64,000 nt of DNA from a phage, in the sequence record PZ027503.1. One strand, 5' to 3'. A program made the translations under genes and the position numbers. Below, piece after piece: positions 22,892-56,101 of the stretch. How positions within the stretch are numbered: the first letter of the stretch is position 1; every line of letters starts with the position of its first letter. Below the pieces are notes generated by a model, which saw only the letters and a program-made list of their open reading frames with translations, searched no databases and was not told the DNA's origin.

Positions 22892-22906
22892 TTTATTTTC
22901 CTCTTT

Positions 22907-22969
22907 GTGGGCTTGCTGTATTGCTCGCCCTACGTGATAAATAATAATGTAAGCGTGATCCGGTGTCAA
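22907..22969 (-). promoter_or_regulatory. promoter plus degenerate 5' stem-loop cassette
   Basis: minus-strand TTGACA-N17-TATTAT then CCCTACGTGATA block. Confidence 0.45.
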
Positions 22970-23144
22970 TAGGTAGCATTGTAAAGATTTGATAGTTTAT
23001 TCCTTTGATGTTTTGTTGTTTGATAGATGTTAGCTATCAATATATGGCGGGGTCGTCCGGTGATTATCTTCCCCTGCTCCCAGGTGCCGCCCGTTCAATA
23101 AGTATAACAAAAAACAGGACAAAAACAAGCCCTGTTTATTTATC

Positions 23145-23264
23145 TTAAAACCAGTTGCCAACCGTTTCCAATAGGTCACTGACTACCAGGACAACATTGA
23201 TCAGCACATATTTAATCAGGAAGGGGATTAGCGCCAGCGCCGCTACTATGATCCCCATTGTCAT
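23145..23264 (-). CDS. membrane micro-protein (39 aa)
   Basis: hand-translated MTMGIIVAALALIPFLIKYVLINVVLVV...; GAGAAAGG RBS. Confidence 0.35.
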   Translation of the reverse strand: MTMGIIVAALALIPFLIKYVLINVVLVVSDLLETVGNWF

Positions 23265-23275
23265 GATTACCTTTC

Positions 23276-23566
23276 TCATTGTTGGCGGTTTACGTAAGCT
23301 TTACCGTTTACGGTCATCTGTATGGCTTCAAGGTCTGGATCTTCCTTAAGGTCGCGTGCAAGCTCACCGCAGCGGATACCCTCGAATCCGTAGTATTCTG
23401 TTTCCCCGTCCTTAAAAGTTTTAGCGGCAAGGCATAGGCGATAATTAACGCCGATCCGGTTTACCGCGTTGATATCGGTTAACGCGATGGATTCAGGCAA
23501 ATCATTAGCCATTACAGGCGCGTTAATACCAACAACCAGGGCAACTACTGCGATCATCTTTTTCAT
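23276..23566 (-). CDS. secreted protein with signal peptide (96 aa)
   Basis: ORF track; MKKMIAVVALVVGINAPVMA; hairpin 23597-23612 upstream. Confidence 0.6.
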   Translation of the reverse strand: MKKMIAVVALVVGINAPVMANDLPESIALTDINAVNRIGVNYRLCLAAKTFKDGETEYYGFEGIRCGELARDLKEDPDLEAIQMTVNGKAYVNRQQ

Positions 23567-23621
23567 GCTTTCTAGCCTCTTCCTATTGCGTTTAATGGGG
23601 CGTTACCGCCCCGCTTATGGT

Positions 23622-23858
23622 TTATTGATTGATGTTATAATGAAAATTATTTTCTTCAATAGCTTTTAAAATAAAAGCCGTGATCGCTTTCGTGTCTACT
23701 TGTTCGAACGTATCGGAATAGCACCAATAATGATCATCCCCTACTTTCGGCGGGTAAACCTGGACAAGGAGATCGCCACCTGGTTGATCTATAAGCTCAA
23801 CATGTAAGCCGGATGATTCAGCGGTTTTAACGGCGTTTAATACTGTTGCAATACTCAT
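23622..23858 (-). CDS. hypothetical protein (78 aa)
   Basis: ORF track; hairpin 23879-23894 upstream of RBS. Confidence 0.55.
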   Translation of the reverse strand: MSIATVLNAVKTAESSGLHVELIDQPGGDLLVQVYPPKVGDDHYWCYSDTFEQVDTKAITAFILKAIEENNFHYNINQ

Positions 23859-23902
23859 AATCTTTTCCTTTCTGATGTGGGGCGTTGCCGCCCCTTTGTT
23901 GA

Positions 23903-24202
23903 TTAGATCGCTGTTTCCAGTAGTTCGGCTAACGTCTTACCGCCTGATAGTTGGTCTAACGTTTGCTCTTCTGGCAAGAAATTAGCTGATATTAATCCGA
24001 CTTGATTCCCTTTGTGCCAATTGGCTTGACGGATGATTCCATCCTTTAAAGATTTTACCGCCATTGTGCAACCGTCGCCAAATGATTCATTTTTATGATC
24101 CATTACTTCATAAGCGCCCAGCTTGCTGCTGTTAGGCACCATCAACGCGAATACATCACCAACAACCAGTTTTTCTACGGTAACAATAGCGATAGTTTCC
24201 AT
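23903..24202 (-). CDS. hypothetical protein (99 aa)
   Basis: ORF track. Confidence 0.55.
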   Translation of the reverse strand: METIAIVTVEKLVVGDVFALMVPNSSKLGAYEVMDHKNESFGDGCTMAVKSLKDGIIRQANWHKGNQVGLISANFLPEEQTLDQLSGGKTLAELLETAI

Positions 24203-24219
24203 TTTACTTTCCTCATTAT

Positions 24220-24278
24220 CGGCGGCACCATTGCCGCCCTACGCATTAAATATAAGTTATCTAAGAGATTAGATCAAG
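24220..24278 (-). promoter_or_regulatory. promoter plus 5' stem-loop cassette
   Basis: hairpin GGCGGCACCATTGCCGCC 24221-24238; minus-strand TTGATC-N17-TATATT. Confidence 0.55.
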
Positions 24279-24280
24279 GA

Positions 24281-24472
24281 TTATTTTGTAAAGATTACAG
24301 CTTCATCAAAATTTTCAACATAGTAAGCAAGCTCCTCATTTGCTGCAACCATTCCTAAAAGTTGGCTATAAGATAAACCTTTGATCCCTTCCTCGTTGTT
24401 TAATGCTTCGATGATTTCATCAACGGGCGCAAAAAACATGTTATTCGATTCCAGGTAGGAGATGGTTTTCAT
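24281..24472 (-). CDS. hypothetical protein (63 aa)
   Basis: ORF track. Confidence 0.5.
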   Translation of the reverse strand: MKTISYLESNNMFFAPVDEIIEALNNEEGIKGLSYSQLLGMVAANEELAYYVENFDEAVIFTK

Positions 24473-24492
24473 AATGTTTACCTTTTTCGGGG

Positions 24493-24549
24493 AGCGGCAC
24501 CATTGCCGCCCTACGTGGTAAATATTAGCACACTGGCGATCTGTGTCAA
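24493..24549 (-). promoter_or_regulatory. promoter plus 5' stem-loop cassette
   Basis: hairpin GCGGCACCATTGCCGC 24494-24509; TTGACA-N16-TAATAT on minus strand. Confidence 0.6.
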
Positions 24550-24555
24550 TACTTT

Positions 24556-24942
24556 TTATTCAATATAAATCAAATTATCTTCACCAATGTAAGCCGACAC
24601 GTTCGGCATAAACTTAGCTGCATTGGTTAGGCGGTTCGCCGTGTTAGTGGTGTATATTTCAGGGCGATCCCAAAAGCCTACGCCGTGACTGTTACGGGTA
24701 AAATGTAAATCATTCCCGATCTGGTTGGCTGTTGCGCCGTCGCTCATTGCCTCAGAGATAGCGGCAAGATTAGCATTAATAAAGGCTGTTACATCCTGGG
24801 CGATCCGTTGATCCGCACTAGGAGAAAAATCATAATCGTCTAAGTTATCAATAAAATTACCTTCATAATCCCTTGCTGATTCAGCAAAAATAAAGGCTTC
24901 TTTATAGCCGTTGATGATTTCAATAATGATTTCTGTTTTCAT
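24556..24942 (-). CDS. hypothetical protein (128 aa)
   Basis: ORF track. Confidence 0.55.
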   Translation of the reverse strand: MKTEIIIEIINGYKEAFIFAESARDYEGNFIDNLDDYDFSPSADQRIAQDVTAFINANLAAISEAMSDGATANQIGNDLHFTRNSHGVGFWDRPEIYTTNTANRLTNAAKFMPNVSAYIGEDNLIYIE

Positions 24943-25154
24943 GCTGTACGCTCGACAATAATAATAGTTTGCGGGATCTCGTTTTCTACTACTAACAAGG
25001 CTTTTTTCTGTGTGATAGATATTTTAACACGTTGTAAAGTAGCGGTAAAATCTTTCATTTCATTATGCGCGGATTTAGTACAATGCCAGATCTCAGGTTT
25101 ACCAACTTGCAAGCCGCGTAAAAATTCCGTTTTACCTGTCTTATTCGTGATCAT
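24939..25154 (-). CDS. hypothetical protein (71 aa)
   Basis: ORF track frame; start at ATG 25154 with AAGGTG RBS. Confidence 0.5.
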   Translation of the reverse strand: MITNKTGKTEFLRGLQVGKPEIWHCTKSAHNEMKDFTATLQRVKISITQKKALLVVENEIPQTIIIVERTA

Positions 25155-25164
25155 TTGTTTCACC

Positions 25165-25269
25165 TTAACCGATACCGTGGGAAGATAGGATCATATTAGC
25201 CATAGTTGCAACTACTCCAACCGATAACGCCAGGCCAACCACTGCAACCGTGAAAATTTTCTCTAACAT
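25165..25269 (-). CDS. membrane micro-protein (34 aa)
   Basis: hand-translated MLEKIFTVAVVGLALSVGVVATMANMILSSHGIG; follows cassette. Confidence 0.35.
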   Translation of the reverse strand: MLEKIFTVAVVGLALSVGVVATMANMILSSHGIG

Positions 25270-25286
25270 GATTCTACCCTCATTAA

Positions 25287-25349
25287 TGGGCGTTGCACCA
25301 TTGCCCCGCCCTACGTAATACACTTTACCAGATAACAAACCATTGTCAA
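25287..25349 (-). promoter_or_regulatory. promoter plus 5' stem-loop cassette (variant)
   Basis: hairpin 25288-25311; TTGACA at 25343-25349 (minus). Confidence 0.5.
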
Positions 25350-25407
25350 GGTTTATTTACTACATCTTTTAAGCTGTATTTTTAAAATACAGCTTTCAGG
25401 CTGTCAA

Positions 25408-25578
25408 TTACTCTTCATCGTCGCCGTTATAGTATTCAATGCCGTTTTCATCGGTTACGGTGATGTTAACGCCACCGATAGCAACACGATCACGGGCAAA
25501 CGTCATAGCTTCGTTTAAATCTTCAGACCAAAAAATATTGTGACCTTTGCGCGATACATAAAACATAGTTGGGATCAT
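25408..25578 (-). CDS. hypothetical protein (56 aa)
   Basis: ORF track frame; start at internal ATG after cassette and AGAAGAGAAA RBS. Confidence 0.5.
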   Translation of the reverse strand: MIPTMFYVSRKGHNIFWSEDLNEAMTFARDRVAIGGVNITVTDENGIEYYNGDDEE

Positions 25579-25600
25579 GATTTGTTTCTCTTCTGTTGTG

Positions 25601-25662
25601 AGCGGTGGACCATTCCGCCGCTCTATGTAATAAACTTTACTACGTTGTTTGCCTACTGTCAA
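25601..25662 (-). promoter_or_regulatory. promoter plus 5' stem-loop cassette
   Basis: hairpin GCGGTGGACCATTCCGCCGC; TTGACA 25657-25662 (minus). Confidence 0.55.
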
Positions 25663-25663
25663 A

Positions 25664-25948
25664 TTATTTTTTAATGTTTTGCCCTACAAAATTGATCACT
25701 TCCTTAAGCTGTCTCTCTGTCATGATCGTACCTGGTAACTCTTCTTTAATTTCTTCCGGTAAATAAATATTACCGCGCCAGGTTAACAAACAACCGTTTT
25801 GATCTTCGCAGATAGAATAAGAAAACATCCACTCGCAATCATTCTCAAGCTCCCAAAAACACAAAAAGTCTTCTTTCCCTAAGTTTTCAACGGTTAAACA
25901 TAATCCGCGACGTGCTGCATAATTAGTTAGGCTTTTTGTGATTTTCAT
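25664..25948 (-). CDS. hypothetical protein (94 aa)
   Basis: ORF track frame; start at internal ATG downstream of hairpin. Confidence 0.55.
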   Translation of the reverse strand: MKITKSLTNYAARRGLCLTVENLGKEDFLCFWELENDCEWMFSYSICEDQNGCLLTWRGNIYLPEEIKEELPGTIMTERQLKEVINFVGQNIKK

Positions 25949-25970
25949 GATTTTTCTCTCTTCTGTTGTG

Positions 25971-26027
25971 AGCGGCACCATTGCCGCCCTACAAGATACA
26001 TATTATCAGACTACGCGGACTTGTCAA
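25971..26027 (-). promoter_or_regulatory. promoter plus 5' stem-loop cassette
   Basis: hairpin GCGGCACCATTGCCGC 25972-25987; TTGACA 26021-26027 (minus). Confidence 0.6.
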
Positions 26028-26028
26028 A

Positions 26029-26139
26029 CTATTTTTTCTTTTTCTTTGCTTCCAACCGTCTAAGGTTACGGCTTGACTTATTGCGCAAGGCGCTTAGATC
26101 GTCGTACCCTTTCCATGCTTGCATATCTTTCGGATTCAT
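26029..26139 (-). CDS. small basic protein (36 aa)
   Basis: ORF track frame; start at internal ATG with GGGGGATAAC RBS; K-rich C-terminus. Confidence 0.35.
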   Translation of the reverse strand: MNPKDMQAWKGYDDLSALRNKSSRNLRRLEAKKKKK

Positions 26140-26149
26140 GTTATCCCCC

Positions 26150-26428
26150 TTAACGATTATAAACATTATGGATGGCTTCAAAGGCAAGATGACCATAAGC
26201 CGCCAAATCGGGATTGATCCAAGCGTTATCCAACATCGTTTCAAGGACTGTGGAATCATCGTATAAAGCATCATAGAAATCTGCACGGATGATCGTTTCA
26301 ATGTCGTCCGGTGTTAGTTTGTCGTTCAACTTGCACACTGTTTCAACGTCAACACCAATTTTCCAATTTTGTAAATTAGTGGTTAACATTGTTTTCATTT
26401 CTTCGGTTGTTAATTTAACGATGGTCAT
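26150..26428 (-). CDS. hypothetical protein (92 aa)
   Basis: ORF track; cassette upstream. Confidence 0.55.
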   Translation of the reverse strand: MTIVKLTTEEMKTMLTTNLQNWKIGVDVETVCKLNDKLTPDDIETIIRADFYDALYDDSTVLETMLDNAWINPDLAAYGHLAFEAIHNVYNR

Positions 26429-26451
26429 GATTTTTTCTCTCTTCTGTTAGG

Positions 26452-26507
26452 CGGGGCGCTTGTCGCCCCTATGTGATACATCTTATCAGGTTGATTCAGC
26501 TTGTCAA
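26452..26507 (-). promoter_or_regulatory. promoter plus 5' stem-loop cassette
   Basis: hairpin GGGGCGCTTGTCGCCCC; TTGACA-N16-TAAGAT (minus). Confidence 0.6.
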
Positions 26508-26508
26508 A

Positions 26509-26670
26509 CTATTTGTTAGCCGGATTATATGCCAGGACCGCGCCGCTTGCTTTCACGCTTTCCGCTTCATAGTTGCGCAGATCGTTTTCTGTAAGATTGA
26601 GCGCGATCACTTCCTCAATCTCAACACCAGCGGCAATGGCGATCTCTTTGATAATGTCTGCTGTTTTCAT
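26509..26670 (-). CDS. hypothetical protein (53 aa)
   Basis: ORF track frame; start at internal ATG (MKTADIIKEI). Confidence 0.5.
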   Translation of the reverse strand: MKTADIIKEIAIAAGVEIEEVIALNLTENDLRNYEAESVKASGAVLAYNPANK

Positions 26671-26680
26671 GGTATGTACC

Positions 26681-26800
26681 TTATAAGATGATTGATAAGA
26701 TAGTGACAACGAAAGCGATTATACTGATGGCAAATGTCATCTTTTTACCTTCGGATACTGCCGGATTTTCTACCGTGTATTCTACTGTGTACTTGCTCAT
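26681..26800 (-). CDS. membrane-anchored micro-protein (39 aa)
   Basis: hand-translated MSKYTVEYTVENPAVSEGKKMTFAISIIAFVVTILSIIL. Confidence 0.35.
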   Translation of the reverse strand: MSKYTVEYTVENPAVSEGKKMTFAISIIAFVVTILSIIL

Positions 26801-26822
26801 CGTGTAATCCTCTCGTTTGCTT

Positions 26823-26880
26823 TGGGAACTATTCCCGCCGCCCTATGAATTAAATATACACTATCTCAAAATGATTGCAA
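26823..26880 (-). promoter_or_regulatory. promoter plus 5' stem-loop cassette (short stem)
   Basis: hairpin GGGAACTATTCCC; TTGCAA at 26875-26880 (minus). Confidence 0.5.
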
Positions 26881-26898
26881 GCCTTTTTCTAAATTATT

Positions 26899-27183
26899 TT
26901 ATGCAGTAAACAAACCATCATTTACAACGGCGGCGATGATCTCCCGTGCCATTGATTCAGGGAAAGGGGCGCTATAGTCCTGGCTTGTCTCATCGGTATC
27001 GGTGATCCAATGATAAGCTAACGAGTAAAAGCCTTTACTAACTGTTTTCAGTGAGATGATGATCACTCGGTCAAGCTTATTGGTGAATGTTGCCGTTAAT
27101 GTGTCACCCTCCTGCGTCATGTTGGACAAGTAAGCGGGATCATTAATCAGGGAAAACATTAGCACGGTGTTAGCTTTACTCAT
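26899..27183 (-). CDS. hypothetical protein (94 aa)
   Basis: ORF track frame; start at internal ATG with GAGGATG RBS. Confidence 0.55.
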   Translation of the reverse strand: MSKANTVLMFSLINDPAYLSNMTQEGDTLTATFTNKLDRVIIISLKTVSKGFYSLAYHWITDTDETSQDYSAPFPESMAREIIAAVVNDGLFTA

Positions 27184-27203
27184 GATTGCATCCTCAAAGG
27201 GGG

Positions 27204-27260
27204 CGCGGCACCATTGCCGCCCTACACGATAACTATAACACAATATAAAACAGGATCAAC
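27204..27260 (-). promoter_or_regulatory. promoter plus 5' stem-loop cassette
   Basis: hairpin GCGGCACCATTGCCGC 27205-27220; TTGATC-N16-TATAGT (minus). Confidence 0.55.
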
Positions 27261-27462
27261 CTTTATTTTTCCACGGTGTCAGCTTGTTAATCATTGGTGA
27301 TAAATAGCGTTTACCAACGTAAAACAGCACGCCAACTGATGCAACGGCGGCGACCTCATGCATAGCCGACGGGAAACGGGTATCATAATAAGATCCAATA
27401 ATAGCAATAGCGGCAACGGCTGCAACGTCGATAATGATTTTTTCTTGTTTTGCGGTGATCAT
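27256..27462 (-). CDS. small membrane protein (68 aa)
   Basis: ORF track; hydrophobic. Confidence 0.5.
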   Translation of the reverse strand: MITAKQEKIIIDVAAVAAIAIIGSYYDTRFPSAMHEVAAVASVGVLFYVGKRYLSPMINKLTPWKNKG

Positions 27463-27481
27463 AATATTTACCTTTTTGTAT

Positions 27482-27541
27482 GGTGGGGAACTATTCCCCG
27501 CCTGATGTAATACAGTTTAACAGGTCCGGTTATGGTGTCAA
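27482..27541 (-). promoter_or_regulatory. promoter plus 5' stem-loop cassette
   Basis: hairpin GGTGGGGAACTATTCCCCGCC; TTGACA 27536-27541 (minus). Confidence 0.55.
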
Positions 27542-27547
27542 CCACTT

Positions 27548-27733
27548 TTAAAGATATTTTATGTTAATGATGTTTTCAGGTTTTACCTTGTTATGATGTG
27601 CATCAACATAGATCAAACCATCGTCAGAAAAGCCCAGGATCACGCCCTGCGCAATAAAACCGTATTCGTCACGGTAACGCACGGCTATTTTTAATGTTGC
27701 GCTGTAGGCTGTTTTAAGCTCGTTTAAAGTCAT
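27548..27733 (-). CDS. hypothetical protein (61 aa)
   Basis: ORF track; GAGGAT RBS. Confidence 0.5.
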   Translation of the reverse strand: MTLNELKTAYSATLKIAVRYRDEYGFIAQGVILGFSDDGLIYVDAHHNKVKPENIINIKYL

Positions 27734-27753
27734 TTTTGTTTATCCTCTACATG

Positions 27754-27774
27754 TAAAAAGAAAGGGCGCTTGGT
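27754..27774 (-). terminator. intra-island terminator
   Basis: AAGGGCGCTTGGTGCGCCCTT hairpin followed by CTTTTTAC on minus strand. Confidence 0.45.
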
Positions 27775-27788
27775 GCGCCCTTGTTATG

Positions 27789-27935
27789 TTAATCCTCTAA
27801 ATCCATCCAATTATATTTGTCACTCTTCCCGCGCTTTGTTTTATTGCGCTTGTCGCCTTTGCGGATCACTTCCTCGTTCCAGGCCTTGCGGATCTTGGAA
27901 GATTGAATTTTTTCTGCGCGATTAGATGTATTCAT
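27789..27935 (-). CDS. small basic protein (48 aa)
   Basis: hand-translated MNTSNRAEKIQSSKIRKAWNEEVIRKGDKRNKTKRGKSDKYNWMDLED; AGAGGAAACA RBS. Confidence 0.4.
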   Translation of the reverse strand: MNTSNRAEKIQSSKIRKAWNEEVIRKGDKRNKTKRGKSDKYNWMDLED

Positions 27936-27954
27936 TTTGTTTCCTCTTTATATG

Positions 27955-28008
27955 AGCGGCACTATTGCCGCTATATTGTTAATTTAAACTGTTTTGTAAA
28001 ATTGTCAA
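27955..28008 (-). promoter_or_regulatory. promoter plus 5' stem-loop cassette
   Basis: hairpin GCGGCACTATTGCCGC 27956-27971; TTGACA 28002-28008 (minus). Confidence 0.55.
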
Positions 28009-28014
28009 GGTTTA

Positions 28015-28368
28015 TCATTCATAAGAGCAAGCAAGGATCACGCCTGCAATATAAAGCCAATAATTTTCCCTTTCTCGTTGGATTTTATCATCGCTGCTAT
28101 TCTCTTTAATGTATCCCCAGGATGTTAACAACCGATCTACTTCCCAATACTCGAAAGCTATATTAATATTTGACGGTAAACCTTGTAACCATGATGCTAT
28201 TGCTCTGATAATGTTATGATCGTAACGTTTTTGATTATCGGTGTACCAATATTCAGATTTAAAACAGCGCATCAATTCCGCGATCTTCTCTTTCTCTTCT
28301 GTGATGCCATACTCGCTATAATCAATTGAGGCCAGAATATAAAGTTTAATTGCATTTTGTGCTTTCAT
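28015..28368 (-). CDS. hypothetical protein (117 aa)
   Basis: ORF track. Confidence 0.55.
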   Translation of the reverse strand: MKAQNAIKLYILASIDYSEYGITEEKEKIAELMRCFKSEYWYTDNQKRYDHNIIRAIASWLQGLPSNINIAFEYWEVDRLLTSWGYIKENSSDDKIQRERENYWLYIAGVILACSYE

Positions 28369-28387
28369 GGTGTCTCTCTTCTGTTGT

Positions 28388-28445
28388 TGGCGGCACCATT
28401 GCCGCCCTATGTGTTACATCTTACCGGATTTTTAAAACTTGTCAA
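28388..28445 (-). promoter_or_regulatory. promoter plus 5' stem-loop cassette
   Basis: hairpin GGCGGCACCATTGCCGCC 28389-28406; TTGACA 28439-28445 (minus). Confidence 0.6.
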
Positions 28446-28667
28446 TCATTTTTCTACTATCATTTGATACCCTGTTTCCAGGTTAGTAAACACCGTGATC
28501 CCGTCCTGGCGTTCACTCATTAGCATACAAGGCGCTAACATCCTTTCTACTGCCTTGCACTCATTGTAAACGGCGGTTATGTCTCCTGCGGCCTTGTCTT
28601 CTGTGGTGAATGTATCGTTTACGTAAACCTGACCAGCGACAACGGCGACAATAGCGAAAGTGATCAT
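28446..28667 (-). CDS. hypothetical protein (73 aa)
   Basis: ORF track; MITFA N-terminus shared with next small ORF. Confidence 0.5.
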   Translation of the reverse strand: MITFAIVAVVAGQVYVNDTFTTEDKAAGDITAVYNECKAVERMLAPCMLMSERQDGITVFTNLETGYQMIVEK

Positions 28668-28700
28668 GGTGTTTCCTTGTTAGTAGTGGTTTCTCTTCTC

Positions 28701-28726
28701 TATAGCGCCCATTGTAAGGCGCTATA
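28701..28726 (-). promoter_or_regulatory. variant 5' stem-loop (TATAGCGCC/GGCGCTATA)
   Basis: inverted repeat immediately upstream of RBS of 28446-28667. Confidence 0.4.
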
Positions 28727-28734
28727 ACGAAAAG

Positions 28735-28908
28735 TCAACGATTATTTTTAAGGCTTAAAGTACCTAACTTGTCAGCATGACGCAGACCAGGGAAGATCCA
28801 TTTGCCTGATTCATCTTTTACAGGTGCTTTAAACGTAGCGCCCAGGTTGGCGGCGTTAATTTTACGGGCAACGTTGCGAGCGGCTTCACGGGTAGCGAAA
28901 GTGATCAT
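28735..28908 (-). CDS. small protein (57 aa)
   Basis: hand-translated MITFATREAARNVARKINAANLGATFKAPVKDESGKWIFPGL... Confidence 0.4.
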   Translation of the reverse strand: MITFATREAARNVARKINAANLGATFKAPVKDESGKWIFPGLRHADKLGTLSLKNNR

Positions 28909-28932
28909 GGTGTTTTCCTCTTCTCTTTGTTA

Positions 28933-28994
28933 GGCGGTGGACCATTCCGCCGCCTTGATGTAATACAGTTTACTTTATTTTTGCAGTATTGCAA
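28933..28994 (-). promoter_or_regulatory. promoter plus 5' stem-loop cassette
   Basis: hairpin GGCGGTGGACCATTCCGCCGCC; TTGCAA 28989-28994 (minus). Confidence 0.45.
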
Positions 28995-29000
28995 GCGGTT

Positions 29001-29213
29001 TTATGAAATAATCGTCAAAGTAAAATTGTAATCACCTGATTGATACAATACTTTATCACCGAACGTTCCAACACGTTTAACATTGCAATATATACCCATA
29101 ACACTTTTTACATCTTTGATATTCTTCACGCCTGTAATATCTTTATTAAAATGATCGTGATCAGAAAATAAAACTTGACTTGCATTTTTTAACAGTGTGC
29201 GGATATTAGCCAT
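29001..29213 (-). CDS. hypothetical protein (70 aa)
   Basis: ORF track. Confidence 0.5.
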   Translation of the reverse strand: MANIRTLLKNASQVLFSDHDHFNKDITGVKNIKDVKSVMGIYCNVKRVGTFGDKVLYQSGDYNFTLTIIS

Positions 29214-29237
29214 CGTAATAATCTCTCTTCTGTTGTG

Positions 29238-29294
29238 AGCGGCACCATTGCCGCCCTACGTAATATAGTTTACTCTTTTTCTTTCCCGTGTCAA
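29238..29294 (-). promoter_or_regulatory. promoter plus 5' stem-loop cassette
   Basis: hairpin GCGGCACCATTGCCGC 29239-29254; TTGACA 29289-29294 (minus). Confidence 0.6.
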
Positions 29295-29303
29295 CAATCT
29301 TTT

Positions 29304-29531
29304 TCAGATTAATTCATCCAGGCATAACAGGCGATCAACGTTGAGATCGGTTAGGCTGATGGTTGGCACCTGGTAGGATTCGATGTACTCGACGCTTGCA
29401 TATTCCCCAAAATTAGCAATAGCCCACTTATTCAAGATCTCACATACATCATTAATCTTTTTGTTTGTTACGACTGCAATAACCTGGGAAGTGCCAACGG
29501 TGCCGGATACGCGAACAATATTGATAGCCAT
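29304..29531 (-). CDS. hypothetical protein (75 aa)
   Basis: ORF track. Confidence 0.5.
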   Translation of the reverse strand: MAINIVRVSGTVGTSQVIAVVTNKKINDVCEILNKWAIANFGEYASVEYIESYQVPTISLTDLNVDRLLCLDELI

Positions 29532-29551
29532 AATCTTTAATCTCTCTGTTT

Positions 29552-29612
29552 TGGCGGGAAACCACTTCCCGCCCTATGTGATACATCTTACACTAATTTT
29601 AAACGTTGTCAA
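29552..29612 (-). promoter_or_regulatory. promoter plus 5' stem-loop cassette
   Basis: hairpin GGCGGGAAACCACTTCCCGCC; TTGACA-N-TAAGAT (minus). Confidence 0.6.
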
Positions 29613-29621
29613 CTGTTTTTA

Positions 29622-29861
29622 TTACATTCCAACCATCGCGGCACGGATCGCAGTAGTGCTATATTTGAAACCGTCTGGCGTTTTATCTTGTCCAGTTTGT
29701 TCCAGAAAAAGCATCATATCCCGCGCCGCATCATTACGATTAGCATTAGCGTTAATAAAATCTTGGGCCAACCGGTATAACGATTCATCGTTATTAATCC
29801 AAAGGCTTACATTCCAATGAGTTTTGTTTTTGTGACCGTTGTACATTTTAGATTTAGCCAT
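29622..29861 (-). CDS. hypothetical protein (79 aa)
   Basis: ORF track. Confidence 0.5.
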   Translation of the reverse strand: MAKSKMYNGHKNKTHWNVSLWINNDESLYRLAQDFINANANRNDAARDMMLFLEQTGQDKTPDGFKYSTTAIRAAMVGM

Positions 29862-29884
29862 GATTTTTCTCTCTTTTTCAGTGA

Positions 29885-29944
29885 GGCGGGAAGTGTTCCC
29901 GCTCTCTATGTAATACAGTTTACTCTTTTTATTCGTGCTGTCAA
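29885..29944 (-). promoter_or_regulatory. promoter plus 5' stem-loop cassette
   Basis: hairpin GCGGGAAGTGTTCCCGC 29886-29902; TTGACA 29939-29944 (minus). Confidence 0.55.
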
Positions 29945-29950
29945 TGCTTT

Positions 29951-30316
29951 TTATAAATCTTTTTTACGTTTTACATCGCTCGCATGACTGTATACAGTGA
30001 TCCCATTGTCACGGCAAAAACGGGAAAGGTAGGCATAATTTGAAAACTCTTTACCTTCCAGGTTGATAACCTTGCTAAACTCTTCTAGGGCAACGGTATC
30101 AAAATGATCACCATAGCCATATTGAAACGGAACGTTAACCACCTCGATCAGTTTACCGCCGATCTCAACGTCAACCATTAAAGAGAAATATGTGTTACCG
30201 TAGGACCGTTGAAACCAGCGACGGGCGCTAATGTGCACCGCTTCAATGCTGGATAATTCAATTTTAGCCGTGTTAGCCAGGGTAGCATAAGCGGAAACAT
30301 TGATATTAATAGCCAT
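29951..30316 (-). CDS. hypothetical protein (121 aa)
   Basis: ORF track. Confidence 0.55.
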   Translation of the reverse strand: MAININVSAYATLANTAKIELSSIEAVHISARRWFQRSYGNTYFSLMVDVEIGGKLIEVVNVPFQYGYGDHFDTVALEEFSKVINLEGKEFSNYAYLSRFCRDNGITVYSHASDVKRKKDL

Positions 30317-30341
30317 GATGATAATCTCTCTTTTTGGTTAG

Positions 30342-30394
30342 TGGGAAGTATTCCCGATAAAAGTTATTATGCTTATACTATCACTCATTGTCAA
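30342..30394 (-). promoter_or_regulatory. promoter plus 5' stem-loop cassette (short stem)
   Basis: hairpin GGGAAGTATTCCC; TTGACA 30389-30394 (minus). Confidence 0.5.
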
Positions 30395-30413
30395 TAGTAT
30401 AAGACTAAAACTT

Positions 30414-30593
30414 TTAACGATAATCGTTATAGGCTTTATTGACCTGGCGAATGTAACATTCGAAAGCAAGATCAATGTATTCGTATTCACGCACATAATC
30501 ACCATAGGTCACTACATACATTTTTAAAGTTTCCTCATAAGCCAGGAGGATCGAATCTAAACCTATAATCTCAGTTTTTGCAATGATAGCCAT
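30414..30593 (-). CDS. small protein (59 aa)
   Basis: hand-translated MAIIAKTEIIGLDSILLAYEETLKMYVVTYGDYVREYEYIDLAFECYIRQVNKAYNDYR. Confidence 0.4.
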   Translation of the reverse strand: MAIIAKTEIIGLDSILLAYEETLKMYVVTYGDYVREYEYIDLAFECYIRQVNKAYNDYR

Positions 30594-30612
30594 GATGTTA
30601 ACCTTTTATTGT

Positions 30613-30670
30613 TGGCGGCACCATTGCCGCCCTACGTGATAAACTATACCAGAAGTTTAAACAGTGTCAA
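30613..30670 (-). promoter_or_regulatory. promoter plus 5' stem-loop cassette
   Basis: hairpin GGCGGCACCATTGCCGCC 30614-30631; TTGACA 30665-30670 (minus). Confidence 0.6.
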
Positions 30671-30676
30671 CCGTTT

Positions 30677-31039
30677 TTATTCGTAAATTTTACCGCTTTC
30701 GGCCCATACCATAACGCGGCGCATACTATCCCAAGTGTTTTGATCCAGGTTTAAGCCGTGCAACTCTTCGGTACTTCCCAGACCAGGTACCGCTTTGTTG
30801 TAAGTCGCATATAAGCGCCCTTGATACTCATACGCCAGAGTAAGATCCGTTTGAATCATCTTTTTAAGCATAGCATTAAGCATCATATTAGCGGCATGTT
30901 GATCACGTTTTAGCGGTAACATATCAATAAGGGCGCGATAAGCTGAAACATGGATATCAACCGTTTCACGTGGTAAATTTTTCATATCATCGCGGAAAGA
31001 TACCAGATTAAATATGATAGTATTGATTTGCTTGCTCAT
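30677..31039 (-). CDS. hypothetical protein (120 aa)
   Basis: ORF track. Confidence 0.55.
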   Translation of the reverse strand: MSKQINTIIFNLVSFRDDMKNLPRETVDIHVSAYRALIDMLPLKRDQHAANMMLNAMLKKMIQTDLTLAYEYQGRLYATYNKAVPGLGSTEELHGLNLDQNTWDSMRRVMVWAESGKIYE

Positions 31040-31059
31040 TGTGTTACCCTTTTTTGTTT

Positions 31060-31121
31060 TGGCGGGGAAGTATTCCGCCGCCCTATGTGATACATCTTAT
31101 CAGATTAAAAAACGTTGTCAA
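31060..31121 (-). promoter_or_regulatory. promoter plus 5' stem-loop cassette
   Basis: hairpin GGCGGGGAAGTATTCCGCCGCC; TTGACA-N-TAAGAT (minus). Confidence 0.6.
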
Positions 31122-31129
31122 GAATATTT

Positions 31130-31225
31130 TTAGAAAATAATATCCGCTACTACAACCCAAAATGGAACGGCTAGAATGATAGCGTTAATCGTTCCAACCG
31201 TCAAGCTATTTTCTTTATTAATCAT
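31130..31225 (-). CDS. membrane micro-protein (31 aa)
   Basis: hand-translated MINKENSLTVGTINAIILAVPFWVVVADIIF; sits between two cassettes. Confidence 0.3.
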   Translation of the reverse strand: MINKENSLTVGTINAIILAVPFWVVVADIIF

Positions 31226-31253
31226 TGTAAGCCTCTTGCATAATTTCACTATG

Positions 31254-31311
31254 AGCGGCACCATTGCCGCCCTACGTGGTAAATATTATGCCAGTGGCGG
31301 CGATATGTCAA
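31254..31311 (-). promoter_or_regulatory. promoter plus 5' stem-loop cassette
   Basis: hairpin GCGGCACCATTGCCGC 31255-31270; TTGACA 31306-31311 (minus). Confidence 0.6.
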
Positions 31312-31865
31312 AGACTATTTTCAAAGTTTTCTAGTGCGATCCTTTTTTCTTCCTCTGTCGGCTGATAATCAGGAAAAGCATCAACACACAACAACGGCGG
31401 GATCTCTTCGTACTCTTCCTCTTCCGTTGTCTCCTCGTCTTCCTCCTGGGCTATGGCTGCAATTTTGGCTAATTTTCTTTCGGCTTGAATCAATTTACCA
31501 TCAAGTACGTTTTTTGCCATGTTGTAAGCGGTCCAGGTGATGCGCTTACTTTCCAACGCTTCATCAAGCGCCGCTATCTTGCTGGGGTATTCATCCAGGA
31601 CACGAAAAGCCGGATCAATTTTGTACAAAGGATTATCTTTCGCGCCGTCGCTTGCATCTTCCGCACTGGATAAATCAGCGTTACCATTTGCCAGCCAGCC
31701 AGGGCGCACATAACGCGCTTTTACGTTGCCGTTACTACGTGCTAATCTGTTACCTATTTGCTCACCGCTATATCCCGTGGATTCATCGATAAGATGATCG
31801 GGAATGATGCGCGGATCATCTGCTTCATGTTTTACCCAAGACTGGATCACATATTCGCGGCCCAT
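31308..31865 (-). CDS. hypothetical protein with acidic C-terminus (185 aa)
   Basis: ORF track frame; start at ATG 31865 with AAGGTGG RBS. Confidence 0.6.
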   Translation of the reverse strand: MGREYVIQSWVKHEADDPRIIPDHLIDESTGYSGEQIGNRLARSNGNVKARYVRPGWLANGNADLSSAEDASDGAKDNPLYKIDPAFRVLDEYPSKIAALDEALESKRITWTAYNMAKNVLDGKLIQAERKLAKIAAIAQEEDEETTEEEEYEEIPPLLCVDAFPDYQPTEEEKRIALENFENSL

Positions 31866-31866
31866 A

Positions 31867-32124
31867 TTAACCACCTTTTTTCAACAATTGGCATACTTTA
31901 AAAAGACTTGCTGAATCCTTGCAAGGGTAGAAAGATGTACGATAATCACGTACGCCAACCTTGCGGATCTCGATGTTCTCGCATGTTGTTTGATCAAAGA
32001 TATTTATTTCATCACGCCCCCTTATATAAACATAGTGGGGATGTATTAACGCATATTTTGCTAATCTGTAAAAAGCGTTATCTTTGAACGCGATCACGTG
32101 ACCTTTTAATTTGATGTAAAACAT
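31867..32124 (-). CDS. hypothetical protein (85 aa)
   Basis: ORF track. Confidence 0.5.
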   Translation of the reverse strand: MFYIKLKGHVIAFKDNAFYRLAKYALIHPHYVYIRGRDEINIFDQTTCENIEIRKVGVRDYRTSFYPCKDSASLFKVCQLLKKGG

Positions 32125-32141
32125 TCTACCACCTTACAAAT

Positions 32142-32197
32142 AGCGGGAACTATTCCCGCTTTATGTAACATATTAACAAATTATTCGTTAATGTCAA
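32142..32197 (-). promoter_or_regulatory. promoter plus 5' stem-loop cassette
   Basis: hairpin AGCGGGAACTATTCCCGCT; TTGACA 32192-32197 (minus). Confidence 0.55.
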
Positions 32198-32200
32198 GCC

Positions 32201-32473
32201 TTAAAGCAAAAACGCTACATCTTGCGCTTTTAGTGTAGTATCAACCATTTTCGGGCTTTTATAATCAACAAAGCGCGCGGTTTTTTCAATAGCGAAACCG
32301 AGATAATCTTGCTTGTTGAAATTACACTCTTTCTTAAATGTTTCCCGTGCAATGGCAATCGCTGCGTCCAGGGATAAACGCCCGTCAATATTGATATTAG
32401 CGAAAGATCCGCCACCGCTCATAGGTTTACCAGTTGTGCCAGCTACGATCATTGTTGCGCTATATGATGCCAT
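32201..32473 (-). CDS. hypothetical protein (90 aa)
   Basis: ORF track. Confidence 0.55.
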   Translation of the reverse strand: MASYSATMIVAGTTGKPMSGGGSFANINIDGRLSLDAAIAIARETFKKECNFNKQDYLGFAIEKTARFVDYKSPKMVDTTLKAQDVAFLL

Positions 32474-32497
32474 GATGATAATCTCTCTTCTGTTACG

Positions 32498-32557
32498 AGC
32501 GGGAAACCACTTCCCGCCCTATGTGATACATCTTATCAGGTTGTTGTTTGTTGTCAA
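32498..32557 (-). promoter_or_regulatory. promoter plus 5' stem-loop cassette
   Basis: hairpin GCGGGAAACCACTTCCCGC; TTGACA-N-TAAGAT (minus). Confidence 0.6.
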
Positions 32558-32563
32558 TACTTT

Positions 32564-32761
32564 TTATTCTATCCCTGCAATTTGATTAACGCGCTTGCAT
32601 TTTGTAGCGTGCTGGTCTTCTGTAATGACTCCCATTTCTAACAGGGAATCAATGAAAGATAAAACCGTTTCATGATCATCCTGGGGATGACTGAACTCAG
32701 TAAAACCGTTTACCACGACGCTGATTTGTCCTGCTTTCGCCACAATGTGCAATGTTGCCAT
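32564..32761 (-). CDS. hypothetical protein (65 aa), first gene of island
   Basis: ORF track; GGAG RBS. Confidence 0.5.
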   Translation of the reverse strand: MATLHIVAKAGQISVVVNGFTEFSHPQDDHETVLSFIDSLLEMGVITEDQHATKCKRVNQIAGIE

Positions 32762-33036
32762 GATTTTAACTCCAGGTGATGAATGATGTTTTTTGTTGGT
32801 GGACGGTGGATTATGGAGATCCTCACCTTTGCCCGTCCTGCATTGCGCCCCTCCTGTTGTTTATTGTCGTTGTGCCGCGCCCCCCTCGACAAGATGAATA
32901 CTACGCCACCAGGTGAGGAACGTCAACCACTTTTTCAATCTTTTTTATTTTCTTTTTTGCTTGCTGTATATGAAGGAAACGGCTATCATCTTTCTACCGC
33001 GCCAACCAGGGCGCACAACAAAGAAAGGGCGATACC

Positions 33037-54825: not shown

Positions 54826-55047
54826 ATGGGTGTTTTTGCAGGTATTGTTGCAGTGGTAAGCTTTTTTGTTATTGCTTTTATGCTTAGTTTGATTCCAGCT
54901 TGGTTACTGTTGCTGGCTTACAACTATGTTGCTGAAGTTATGGGTCATGCAGATATCACTGTCCCAGTAACCTTCTGGACCGTGGTTTGTGTTTCGTTTA
55001 TTCTGGCTGTATTACGAGGAATCTTTTCCTCTCATTCAACAAAATAA
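54826..55047 (+). CDS. small membrane protein (73 aa)
   Basis: ORF track; two TM helices. Confidence 0.5.
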   Translation: MGVFAGIVAVVSFFVIAFMLSLIPAWLLLLAYNYVAEVMGHADITVPVTFWTVVCVSFILAVLRGIFSSHSTK

Positions 55048-55050
55048 GTG

Positions 55051-55109
55051 TTGACATAGTTCTTAAAAAGAGTAAGATATATCACATGAAGCGGGGAATA
55101 GTTCCCCGC
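55051..55109 (+). promoter_or_regulatory. promoter plus 5' stem-loop cassette (same family as island cassettes, plus orientation)
   Basis: TTGACA-N16-TAAGAT, then hairpin GCGGGGAATAGTTCCCCGC, then GAGAGGAG RBS. Confidence 0.6.
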
Positions 55110-55126
55110 AAAGAGAGGAGAAAAGA

Positions 55127-56101
55127 ATGCAACTTGGTTTCCCAATTATTGATGTAGTTGTTTTAGTTGGTATTTTAGCATTGTCTATTGGTATCGATTT
55201 CTTTGGTCATAAAGAGAATAAAGAAATTGGAATTAAATCTGCTTTGCTTTGGTCTGTTTTTTGGATTGCTTTAGCTTTAGGATATTACGCATTCATTTGG
55301 GTAGAACATGGTAAAGAGTTTGCCGCGCTTTTCCTAAGTGGCTATGTGTTGGAAAAGAGTCTTTCTGTAGATAACCTGATGGTGTTCATGGCGATTTTTG
55401 CAAGCTTTGGAATTAAGAGCACACATCTCCAACATAAGATTCTACTTTGGGGGATTGCAGGAGCCATTGTCTTCCGAGGTATTTTTGTTGCAGCAGGGAC
55501 CGCTTTGTTTAACCTTCATTGGTCGGTCCAAGTGTTGTTCGGTTTGATTGTAGCTTGGTCTGCCGTGGCTATCATCAAAGGTGGTGACGAAGAAGAGGAT
55601 ATTGATTACTCTAAACATTGGGCTGTTCGTTTAGTAGGTAAAGTTCTGCCTGTGCACAATGCACTAGATGGTGAAAAGTTCATTACCATTAAGAATGGTA
55701 TTAAATATGCAACTCCTGCTCTTCTTTGTGTGTTTGTTATTGAGCTTACAGATATTGTCTTCTCTTTTGATTCAGTTCCGGCTGTGATCGGTGTGACACA
55801 AGAACCTCTGCTAGTTTATTCTGCAATGCTGATGGCTGTTCTTGGTTTACGTGCACTTTTCTTTGTGTTAAGTGTAGCTGTGAAATATCTGGTTCACTTA
55901 GAGAAAGCTGTTGCTGTGGTTCTGGTGTTTGTCGGTGCTAAACTTATGTATCACCCGTTCGGTGAAACACTTCATGCCAAGTGGTCATTCCTCCCGCATG
56001 ATATTTCCCCTAACGTAAGTCTGATGATTGTTCTAGGCACATTAGCTCTTGGTGTTATTGCAAGCTTTATCTTCCCTGAAAAAGAAGAAGCTGCTATTTA
56101 A
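55127..56101 (+). CDS. TerC-family integral membrane protein
   Basis: multi-TM; duplicated signature VLEKSLSVDNLMVF and IELTDIVFSFDSVPAV. Confidence 0.8.
   Translation: MQLGFPIIDVVVLVGILALSIGIDFFGHKENKEIGIKSALLWSVFWIALALGYYAFIWVEHGKEFAALFLSGYVLEKSLSVDNLMVFMAIFASFGIKSTHLQHKILLWGIAGAIVFRGIFVAAGTALFNLHWSVQVLFGLIVAWSAVAIIKGGDEEEDIDYSKHWAVRLVGKVLPVHNALDGEKFITIKNGIKYATPALLCVFVIELTDIVFSFDSVPAVIGVTQEPLLVYSAMLMAVLGLRALFFVLSVAVKYLVHLEKAVAVVLVFVGAKLMYHPFGETLHAKWSFLPHDISPNVSLMIVLGTLALGVIASFIFPEKEEAAI

Follow-up and report, generated by a model that had tools for sequence, protein, structure and literature searches.

Along the minus strand of a 64,000-nucleotide (nt) stretch of phage DNA (sequence record PZ027503.1; the whole stretch is called the window here), 33 small genes lie within about 10 kb, at positions 22,892-32,557, and are served by 22 full copies of a compact cassette. 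In each cassette a sigma-70-like promoter is followed by a GC-rich hairpin, a ribosome-binding site (RBS) and the start codon of a small open reading frame (ORF).

Genomic setting of the array

The source of the window is a Phapecoctavirus, a phAPEC8-like E. coli myophage of the Stephanstirmvirinae, and not a T4-type phage. Positions 26,000-32,600 align over their full length, at 96% identity, with the Escherichia phages Mt1B1_P17 and tuntematon (the latter classified in Stephanstirmvirinae, Phapecoctavirus), and match 203 phage records, phAPEC8-like almost throughout. The array region corresponds to 5.9-17.4 kb of tuntematon, where leftward hypothetical genes lie near the left genome end; in phage phi92 (Justusliebigvirus) the homologous block adjoins the terminal repeat. 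This setting is in keeping with an early region in a large virulent myophage, and the position next to a genome end in both phages is counted in favour of an early-gene array.

The genes themselves are clustered small ORFs in a plastic region and are annotated as hypothetical in relatives. The ten largest array proteins match only PHROGs of unknown function and no Pfam family, in agreement with a preliminary description of the window, made from the sequence alone, in which the cargo was called unannotatable. A 70-nt cassette used as a BLAST query matched 145 phage records. A host origin of this cassette was considered and rejected, there being no match among 5,426 complete Escherichia coli genomes.

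Anatomy of the cassettes

To establish the anatomy, the minus strand was read and, for each of the 33 leftward genes that start between 22.5 and 32.8 kb, the preceding 105 nt were extracted (Table 1). A full module consists, in order, of an A-rich tract, a -35 element, a spacer, a -10 element, a short conserved stretch, a GC hairpin, an A-rich leader, a purine-rich RBS and ATG. The -35 element is TTGACA in 18 of the 22 cassettes, the spacer measures 16-18 nt, and the -10 elements are of the types TAAGAT, TAATAT, TAAACT or TATAGT (TAnnnT). Between the -10 and the hairpin the sequence is conserved as gtatcacatag or ttaccacgtag. The stem starts 9-11 nt past the -10 in 16 of the 22 cassettes (range 5-16, the low end reflecting extra weak outer pairs) and ends 15-27 nt before the ATG. 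All 22 hairpins have folding energies between -5.5 and -16 kcal/mol. About half of them are identical in sequence (GGCGGCAatggTGCCGCC), so that there are fewer independent variants than copies.

The succession of promoter, hairpin and RBS is as the preliminary description had it, and the four hairpins quoted there are all present, as are two promoterless hairpins that it placed just before RBSs (23597-23612 and 23879-23894). Its statement that almost every leftward ORF is preceded by a cassette was too broad: a full module stands before 22 of the 33 starts and a promoter of a different type, with a stem-loop round its -10, before one more (ATG 28667), but three have a hairpin with no promoter and seven have neither. 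Two of these promoterless hairpins lack a T-run (23894-23879 and 23612-23597) and the third has one (27782-27762). Similarly, one small ORF per cassette is correct for 15 cassettes, while the other seven drive two to four.

The leaders past the hairpin are A-rich and often contain AACAACAGAAGAGAGA, a run of A-R-N triplets (for example at 28388-28369); we take these to be reminiscent of Hfq distal-face or S1-binding enhancer sequences.

Table 1. Cassettes and related elements, with positions in the window. Promoters are given as -35 element, spacer length (nt) and -10 element; gene products in amino acids (aa).
Element	Position (strand)	Start codon	Promoter	Hairpin or leader	Genes and remarks
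Cassette 1	32474..32557 (-)	ATG 32473	TTGACA-16-TAAGAT	32519-32497 GGGCGGGAAGtggTTTCCCGCTC	90-aa ORF
Cassette 2	32125..32197 (-)	ATG 32124	TTGACA-16-TAATAT	32160-32142 AGCGGGAAtagTTCCCGCT	85-aa + 185-aa ORFs
Cassette 3	31226..31311 (-)	ATG 31225	TTGACA-17-TAATAT	31272-31253 GGGCGGCAatggTGCCGCTC	31-aa ORF
Cassette 4	31040..31121 (-)	ATG 31039	TTGACA-16-TAAGAT	31082-31061 GGCGGCGGAAtacTTCCCCGCC	120-aa ORF
Cassette 5	30594..30670 (-)	ATG 30593	TTGACA-16-TATAGT	30631-30614 GGCGGCAatggTGCCGCC	59-aa ORF
Cassette 6	30317..30394 (-)	ATG 30316	TTGACA-17-CATAAT	30355-30343 GGGAAtacTTCCC, weak, 5 bp	121-aa ORF
Cassette 7	29862..29944 (-)	ATG 29861	TTGACA-16-TAAACT	29906-29883 GAGAGCGGGAAcacTTCCCGCCTC	79-aa ORF
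Cassette 8	29532..29612 (-)	ATG 29531	TTGACA-16-TAAGAT	29573-29553 GGCGGGAAGtggTTTCCCGCC	75-aa ORF
Cassette 9	29214..29294 (-)	ATG 29213	TTGACA-16-TAAACT	29256-29237 GGGCGGCAatggTGCCGCTC	70-aa ORF
Cassette 10	28909..28994 (-)	ATG 28908	TTGCAA-16-TAAACT	28955-28932 AGGCGGCGGAatggTCCACCGCCT, internal C.A mismatch	57-aa ORF
Odd promoter	28668..28738 (-)	ATG 28667	TTGACT-16-TACAAT	stem-loop round -10: TATAGCGCC-tTACAATg-GGCGCTATA	73-aa ORF
Cassette 11	28369..28445 (-)	ATG 28368	TTGACA-16-TAAGAT	28406-28389 GGCGGCAatggTGCCGCC	117-aa ORF
Cassette 12	27936..28008 (-)	ATG 27935	TTGACA-16-TAAATT	27972-27955 AGCGGCAatagTGCCGCT	48-aa ORF
Terminator-like hairpin with T-run	27762..27782 (-)			AAGGGCGCaccaaGCGCCCTT TCTTTTT	between 48-aa and 61-aa ORFs
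Cassette 13	27463..27541 (-)	ATG 27462	TTGACA-16-TAAACT	27502-27482 GGCGGGGAAtagTTCCCCACC	68-aa ORF
Cassette 14	27184..27259 (-)	ATG 27183	TTGATC-16-TATAGT	27220-27205 GCGGCAatggTGCCGC	94-aa ORF
Cassette 15	26801..26880 (-)	ATG 26800	TTGCAA-16-TATATT	26836-26824 GGGAAtagTTCCC, degenerate	39-aa + 53-aa ORFs
Cassette 16	26429..26507 (-)	ATG 26428	TTGACA-16-TAAGAT	26469-26453 GGGGCGacaagCGCCCC	92-aa + 36-aa ORFs
Cassette 17	25949..26027 (-)	ATG 25948	TTGACA-16-TAATAT	25989-25970 GGGCGGCAatggTGCCGCTC	94-aa ORF
Cassette 18	25579..25662 (-)	ATG 25578	TTGACA-17-TAAAGT	25623-25600 GAGCGGCGGAatggTCCACCGCTC	56-aa ORF
Cassette 19	25270..25349 (-)	ATG 25269	TTGACA-16-TAAAGT	25311-25288 GGGCGGGGCAatggTGCAACGCCC	34-, 71-, 128-aa ORFs
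Cassette 20	24473..24549 (-)	ATG 24472	TTGACA-16-TAATAT	24511-24492 GGGCGGCAatggTGCCGCTC	63-aa ORF
Cassette 21	24203..24277 (-)	ATG 24202	TTGATC-17-TATATT	24238-24221 GGCGGCAatggTGCCGCC	4-gene operon (99, 78, 96, 39 aa)
Promoterless hairpin	23879..23894 (-)			GGGGCGgcaaCGCCCC	21 nt before ATG of 78-aa ORF
Promoterless hairpin	23597..23612 (-)			GGGGCGgtaaCGCCCC	before 96-aa ORF
Terminator-like hairpin with T-run	23112..23137 (-)				end of cassette-21 operon
Cassette 22	22892..22969 (-)	ATG 22891	TTGACA-17-TATTAT	~22933-22907 GGGCGAGCAatacaGCAAGCCC	122-aa ORF; chimera relative to two tuntematon cassettes
Variant cassette	32762..32926 (-)		TTGACG-17-TAGTAT	~125-nt leader in place of hairpin	65-aa ORF
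Outlying cassette	55051..55126 (+)		TTGACA-16-TAAGAT	GCGGGGAAtagTTCCCCGC	before TerC-family membrane protein gene

The hairpins exceed chance expectation

Strict hairpins, defined as Watson-Crick GC hairpins of at least 6 bp with at least 5 GC pairs, number 17 in the 9.7-kb array, against 0.25 in shuffles of local composition (maximum 2); their density is 1.75/kb in the array and 0.28/kb in the remaining window, a six-fold difference. Folding of 20 predicted leaders gave in every case a hairpin that begins at nt 4-7, with an unpaired RBS after it, and for 16 of the 20 the folding z-score is at or below -1.9 relative to dinucleotide shuffles. A covariance model built from nine canonical copies and run with filters off over all 64 kb recovered 21 of the 22 cassettes, 19 of them at E < 0.01 and two at E 0.1-0.2. 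The sole further match with E < 0.5 was a plus-strand copy at 55047-55117; the cassette array is confined, and this copy is the only other one in the window.

Pairing is conserved while stem sequences change

The copies are clearly related: many hairpins are identical, and there is high sequence conservation in the block that runs from the -10 across the 5′ arm and the loop. The variation, which the preliminary description read as compensatory change rather than duplicated sequence, nonetheless comprises at least 10 distinct stems in the window alone, all of them paired (such as GCGGGAA/TTCCCGC, GGCGGGAAG/TTTCCCGCC, GGGGCG/CGCCCC and GGCGGCGGA/TCCACCGCC). Compensatory pairing as such is upheld by an alignment of 41 cassettes from the window, phAPEC8, phi92 and rV5 (Vequintavirinae). 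The share of paired cells here is 94%, compared with 84 ± 1.3% in shuffles, and double-sided changes occur at five of the eight pairs (27 cells); 0 of 500 shuffles reached any of these measures, and pairing with the partners slid by 1-3 columns was 27-66%. The outer pair is GC in 15 cassettes, GU in 13 and AU in 8, with no A.C. Because the alignment was fitted to the model and its sequences are related, this covariation is supportive, not decisive.

More telling for conservation of structure are the changes of stem at orthologous sites, which were anchored on the first 90 nt of each gene (genes are named here by the position of their start codon). The hairpin of gene 32473 is GGGCGGGAAGtggTTTCCCGCTC in the window and in tuntematon, GGGCGGCGGAatggTCCACCGCTC in phAPEC8 and GGGCGGCAatagTGCCGCTC in phi92, making three stem types across five genomes. 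Gene 28368 is preceded by GGCGGCA/TGCCGCC in the window and by GGGCGGGAA/TTCCCGCT in three relatives; gene 31039 has a different stem in each of the window, phi92 and the jumbo phage 121Q, where the stem of gene 29861 also differs; and the C.A mismatch in cassette 28908 is a U-A pair in phi92. A hairpin has therefore repeatedly been replaced by another hairpin. At orthologous sites in phAPEC8, phi92 and 121Q, pairing has been preserved by compensatory changes; a check of covariation across related phages had been proposed in the preliminary description.

Distribution in other phages and earlier annotation

The arrangement is not peculiar to the window. At least 14 such cassettes are present in phi92, and in rV5 about half of the strong early promoters carry a hairpin, with stems such as GGCGGGAAtgtTTCCCGCC, GGGGGGCaacaaGCCCCACC and GGGGCAaaagTGCCC. 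The same grammar of promoter, hairpin and leader precedes small ORFs in the unrelated 121Q (Asteriusvirus, 134670-140357), where hairpin sequences are near-identical to those of the window, yet stand before different genes. It recurs in the Klebsiella jumbo phage K64-1 (226110-231228) with AU-richer stems and a longer offset. Values for the offset between -10 and stem group at 9-11 nt in each of the window, tuntematon, Mt1B1_P17, phAPEC8, phi92, rV5 and 121Q, even though the bases in this interval are not the same.

Parts of the motif have been annotated before. In the GenBank record of phAPEC8 (NC_020079.1), the 20-mer GTAGGGCGGCAATGGTGCCG and its variants are tagged at orthologous sites as 'putative promoter determined with PHIRE', and the sigma-70 part as 'host dependent promoter determined with MEME'; another GenBank record labels the hairpin motif as a terminator. 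The PHIRE annotation concerns the same 20-mer, and the inverted repeat, its place after a sigma-70 promoter and its covariation are absent from it. Papers on rV5, the Certrevirus phage CB7 and the jumbo phage CBB describe sigma-70 promoters clustered before small early genes, with no hairpin. Sigma-70 promoters are likewise reported in the literature on phAPEC8-, rV5-, phi92- and 121Q-like phages, in which we found neither a description of the hairpin nor transcript 5′-end data. The motif was thus known, but as a promoter or a terminator and not as a transcribed hairpin.

That the 20-mer might be a phage-specific promoter, as the phAPEC8 record proposes, is scarcely credible. The annotation falls exactly on GTAGGGCGGCAATGGTGCCG, but PHIRE reports merely repeated 20-mers, and the motif, an inverted repeat whose arms covary, is preceded by a near-consensus sigma-70 promoter and has the ATG 15-27 nt away; moreover, for a related phage of the group the absence of an RNA polymerase gene is reported (PMC7344957).

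Relation to PeSLs and to terminators

Promoter-early stem-loop (PeSL) cassettes are known from the T4-type phages RB49/phi1, PST/T4 and nt-1/KVP40 (Arbiol et al. 2010, PMC2839356; Comeau et al. 2014, PMC4122927). Like them, the array cassettes unite a sigma-70-like early promoter, an AT-rich upstream tract and a G...C stem-loop in one intergenic motif; they are densely arrayed in a plastic region, upstream of small ORFans; and indels between close relatives have crossovers inside the motif and leave chimeric motifs behind. The likeness to PeSLs drawn in the preliminary description accordingly holds for architecture, genomic setting and recombination behaviour. It does not extend to the phage lineage, which is Stephanstirmvirinae and not T4-type, to sequence or to the place of the stem-loop.

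For the last two points we compared 24 kb of an RB49 hyperplastic region, whose intergenic regions were read and contain a dozen or more PeSL-type motifs. These take the form TTGACAggggatc...gatccccTATAAT, or GGGAGTAgtaagaTACTCCC with the -10 in the loop. The cassette covariance model gave no match in this region, and leaders and stems also differ by eye; such dissimilarity is a weak criterion, because even among T4-like lineages PeSLs are not alike. In RB49 the stem-loop is placed between the promoter's -35 and -10 or around the -10, whereas in 22 of 23 cases in the array it lies downstream of the -10, at a fixed distance. The odd promoter at 28668-28738, with its loop round the -10, is the only array member with the typical RB49 layout. 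Being inside the promoter, the RB49 stem-loop is not part of that promoter's own transcript, a position that agrees with its authors' reading as a terminator or attenuator and with their reporter result (PMC2839356). A hairpin downstream of the -10 implies a different primary role. A downstream class is among the five PeSL classes that the same authors mention (PMC2839356). The array hairpins differ further from PeSLs in having no T-rich tail. Kinship with PeSLs is thus one of design and evolutionary behaviour, not of sequence.

The original PeSL reading, applied here, would make the hairpin mainly a terminator or attenuator of transcription from the upstream cassette, preventing a pile-up of expression from 22 tandem promoters. 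An RB49 PeSL stem-loop cut lacZ expression as strongly as rrnB T1 (PMC2839356), further insulation would be useful where 33 genes have only two T-run terminators, promoterless hairpins lie between genes, and some GenBank records do label the hairpin as a terminator. Intrinsic (Rho-independent) terminators are similar in their GC-rich hairpins of 6-10 bp, but the U-tract is missing here: a T-run follows 0 of the 22 cassette hairpins, and the 8 nt after the stem contain a median of 1 T and 5 A. A terminator scan of the coding strand found strong GC-rich sites only at 27782-27762 and 23137-23112, and none of the 22 cassette hairpins scored. An intrinsic terminator was rejected on these sequence grounds. 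Nor does termination in general give a reason for the fixed placement 9-11 nt past the next promoter's -10 across phage groups, the RB49 stem-loop lying inside its promoter. All told, we consider it rather unlikely that termination is the hairpin's main task.

Recombination at the cassettes

Alignment of 22.0-33.5 kb with tuntematon and Mt1B1_P17 revealed six indels, of which five involve a cassette; in two of these, one cassette has cleanly crossed over with another within the hairpin. At the first, the 63-aa gene (24281-24472) is flanked by two cassettes in the window; the gene and one cassette are absent in both relatives, where a single chimeric cassette combines the upstream promoter with the downstream leader, the crossover lying inside the common cgtagggcggcaatggtgccgc. 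The reverse case concerns tuntematon gp016, which two cassettes flank, while the window has a chimera (cassette 22) with the crossover in cgtagggcg. In three further indels the junction is in the cassette leader, at the -35 or at the hairpin itself, and the remaining one, of a gene within an operon, involves no cassette. The same hairpin variant also precedes different genes in the window and in 121Q. This pattern is modular shuffling as described for PeSLs.

The longest repeat in the array is the conserved block from the -10 through the hairpin, and this block very probably acts as the homology patch at which recombination adds, deletes or swaps single-ORF modules. Morons and integron gene cassettes are comparable in that single small ORFs with their own expression signals are gained and lost as units; neither an integrase nor an attC-type site is present here, and exchange appears to use general homologous recombination between the repeated cassettes.

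From the same observations it could be argued that the hairpin does nothing for expression: it may simply belong to a repeat that recombination or gene conversion spreads and keeps uniform, or selection may act on it solely as a hot spot of recombination, for instance as a cruciform or hairpin substrate. Crossovers inside the hairpin, the identity of about half of the copies and the one variant shared with 121Q before different genes would all follow, and the authors of the PeSL work speculated on a structure-specific recombination protein (PMC2839356). A neutral repeat would decay asymmetrically, however, whereas pairing has been kept here through two-arm changes and across unrelated stems, and the offset from the -10 has been held while the flanking bases changed. 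We therefore regard a hairpin devoid of any role in expression as very doubtful.

A transcribed 5′ hairpin as the proposed explanation

The elements are very probably PeSL-like cassettes that combine a promoter with a transcribed hairpin and serve also as recombination linkers. A fuller model, in which the cassettes belong to an early array and the hairpin sits at the 5′ terminus of each mRNA, protecting or insulating it, in addition to the linker function, is the reading that we consider most likely, at about even odds of being right.

According to this fuller model, the array would hold early (host-takeover) genes, and its near-consensus sigma-70 promoters with their A-rich, UP-like tract would be read by unmodified host RNA polymerase. 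The E. coli holoenzyme would be expected to start about 7 nt past the -10, at the conserved CA; with the stem at 9-11 nt, the hairpin would then begin at about +3 to +5 of the predicted mRNA. There it may shield early mRNA from 5′-end-dependent decay by RppH and RNase E, in the manner of ompA and papA. The leader past the hairpin, short and A-rich, would be largely covered by the initiating ribosome, and the hairpin would give unrelated ORFs a uniform folded 5′ context with the RBS open. Secondarily, in read-through transcripts from an upstream cassette, the hairpin may form an internal barrier or a processing boundary, a role that would explain why promoterless hairpins have been retained. 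A 5′ stabiliser, a processing site and a binding site, which the preliminary description named as possible RNA-level roles, are likewise candidates.

The leader of T7 gene 10 also has a 5′ stem-loop. Base pairing at the 5′ end is known to slow attack by RNase E and RppH (review PMC3997798, its references 92-95), and stem-loops acting as 5′-terminal stabilisers have been described for the ompA and papA mRNAs of E. coli (Emory, Bouvet, Belasco 1992, via review PMC3997798). The array hairpins resemble these in being short GC hairpins a few nt from the 5′ end (here a predicted one), in leaving the RBS open and in keeping their pairing by covariation. The ompA and papA stabilisers are single-gene features, whereas the array has a repeated standard module on 22 promoters, with a 5′ end that is predicted. 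An RNase III site was rejected on general knowledge, the stems being only 6-10 bp long.

Several observations weigh against a transcribed, protective 5′ hairpin as the whole explanation. The position at +3 to +5 is predicted, and with 3-5 unpaired nt ahead of the stem, protection would be borderline. The analogous RB49 stem-loop terminated transcription in a reporter (PMC2839356). Near-consensus sigma-70-like promoters at +40445, +42836, +61970, -10585, -10117 and -9202 (strand and position) have a gene immediately after them and a short, unstructured leader that lacks a hairpin, so that the hairpin marks one class of promoter and not all. That the hairpin is not indispensable is seen at cassette 30316, where tuntematon has the weak stem in broken form and phi92 lacks it. 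An internal C.A mismatch, which a constraint at the RNA level should disfavour, occurs in three stem types; G.T mismatches occur in 4-5 unique stem types and C.A in 3, which does not decide between the RNA and the DNA level. Part of the conservation is recent homogenisation, as the roughly half of copies that are identical indicate, and the loop and 5′ arm are conserved beyond the needs of pairing. Finally, the G-rich arm is 5′ and the C-rich arm 3′ on the transcribed strand in all stems of every phage group examined, including the RB49 PeSLs, and this placement is not explained by structure alone.

Some of these points would be accounted for if the inverted repeat were a recognition site for a factor acting on the early class, whether a DNA operator at +3 to +25 for a shut-off repressor or an RNA tag for a protein or nuclease that times decay or translation. 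Apart from the constant 5′ placement of the G-rich arm, the near-invariance of TAGGGCGG and of the AAT(G/A)G loop exceeds what pairing needs, the hairpin occurs on one promoter class only, and its position overlaps the classical location of operators. A palindromic operator should have a fixed half-site spacing, but stem length and loop (3-6 nt) vary, GGCGG and CCGCC are 17-24 nt apart and the arms covary, unlike a site for a rigid dimer on duplex DNA. Stem sequences are, besides, quite different in rV5, 121Q and K64-1, and no candidate factor was identified; we hold a recognition site to be quite unlikely.

A more far-reaching idea is that the hairpin is a shared address label. The cassettes would then be a common currency for the exchange of early host-takeover genes across unrelated families of large virulent enterobacterial phages (phAPEC8/phi92-, rV5-, 121Q- and K64-1-like), and the hairpin with its G-rich 5′ arm would be read by a dedicated factor. 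Such a factor might set the timing of the entire early class, as an RNA-binding protein or a nuclease, or might serve recombination in a structure-specific way. We think this unlikely; were it true, the array would be an integron-like system without an integrase.

Should the PeSL-like reading with a transcribed hairpin be correct, the PeSL idea of coupling small-gene expression to shuffling would no longer be confined to T4-type phages: among enterobacterial phages it would take in at least two other subfamilies and two genera of jumbo phages, and would include a variant whose hairpin forms part of the mRNA 5′ end. Existing annotations of the motif as promoter or terminator would then be corrected. 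The cassette may further offer a simple sequence rule for locating early host-takeover genes, now hypothetical, in hundreds of genomes of therapeutic coliphages, a natural set of compact parts with promoter and 5′ hairpin for expression design, and a testable hypothesis of how phage early mRNAs evade 5′-end-dependent decay.

Variant, outlying and residual elements

At one site next to the array, the long leader of the variant cassette (32762-32926) holds a mini-ORF of 6 codons (ATGCAGGACGGGCAAAGGTGA). phAPEC8 and tuntematon have a normal hairpin at this site, and phi92 and Mt1B1_P17 share the allele of the window; both alleles therefore circulate among genomes. Inside the cassette-21 operon, the leader of the 78-aa ORF has the promoterless hairpin 23879-23894 in the window, and that of its phi92 homologue bears a full cassette.

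The outlying plus-strand cassette (locus 55051-56101) drives a gene for a 324-aa TerC-family membrane protein (Pfam PF03741, E = 3e-40). Rfam at gathering score gave no match in the whole 64-kb window, and a tRNA scan found none. The non-coding stretch 22975-23145 was checked as a possible small RNA and nothing was found there (z = -1.0).

An orphan TTGACA with an AT-rich inverted repeat (aaagctgtattttaaaaatacagcttaaaag) at 25378-25410 on the minus strand is probably a scar of deletion or replacement; tuntematon has a promoterless GC hairpin and a 45-aa gene at this place. Two neighbouring small genes on the minus strand (28893-28908 and 28652-28667) are identical in their RBS and first 16 nt (ATGATCACTTTCGCTA), and the junction of an indel relative to tuntematon lies there.

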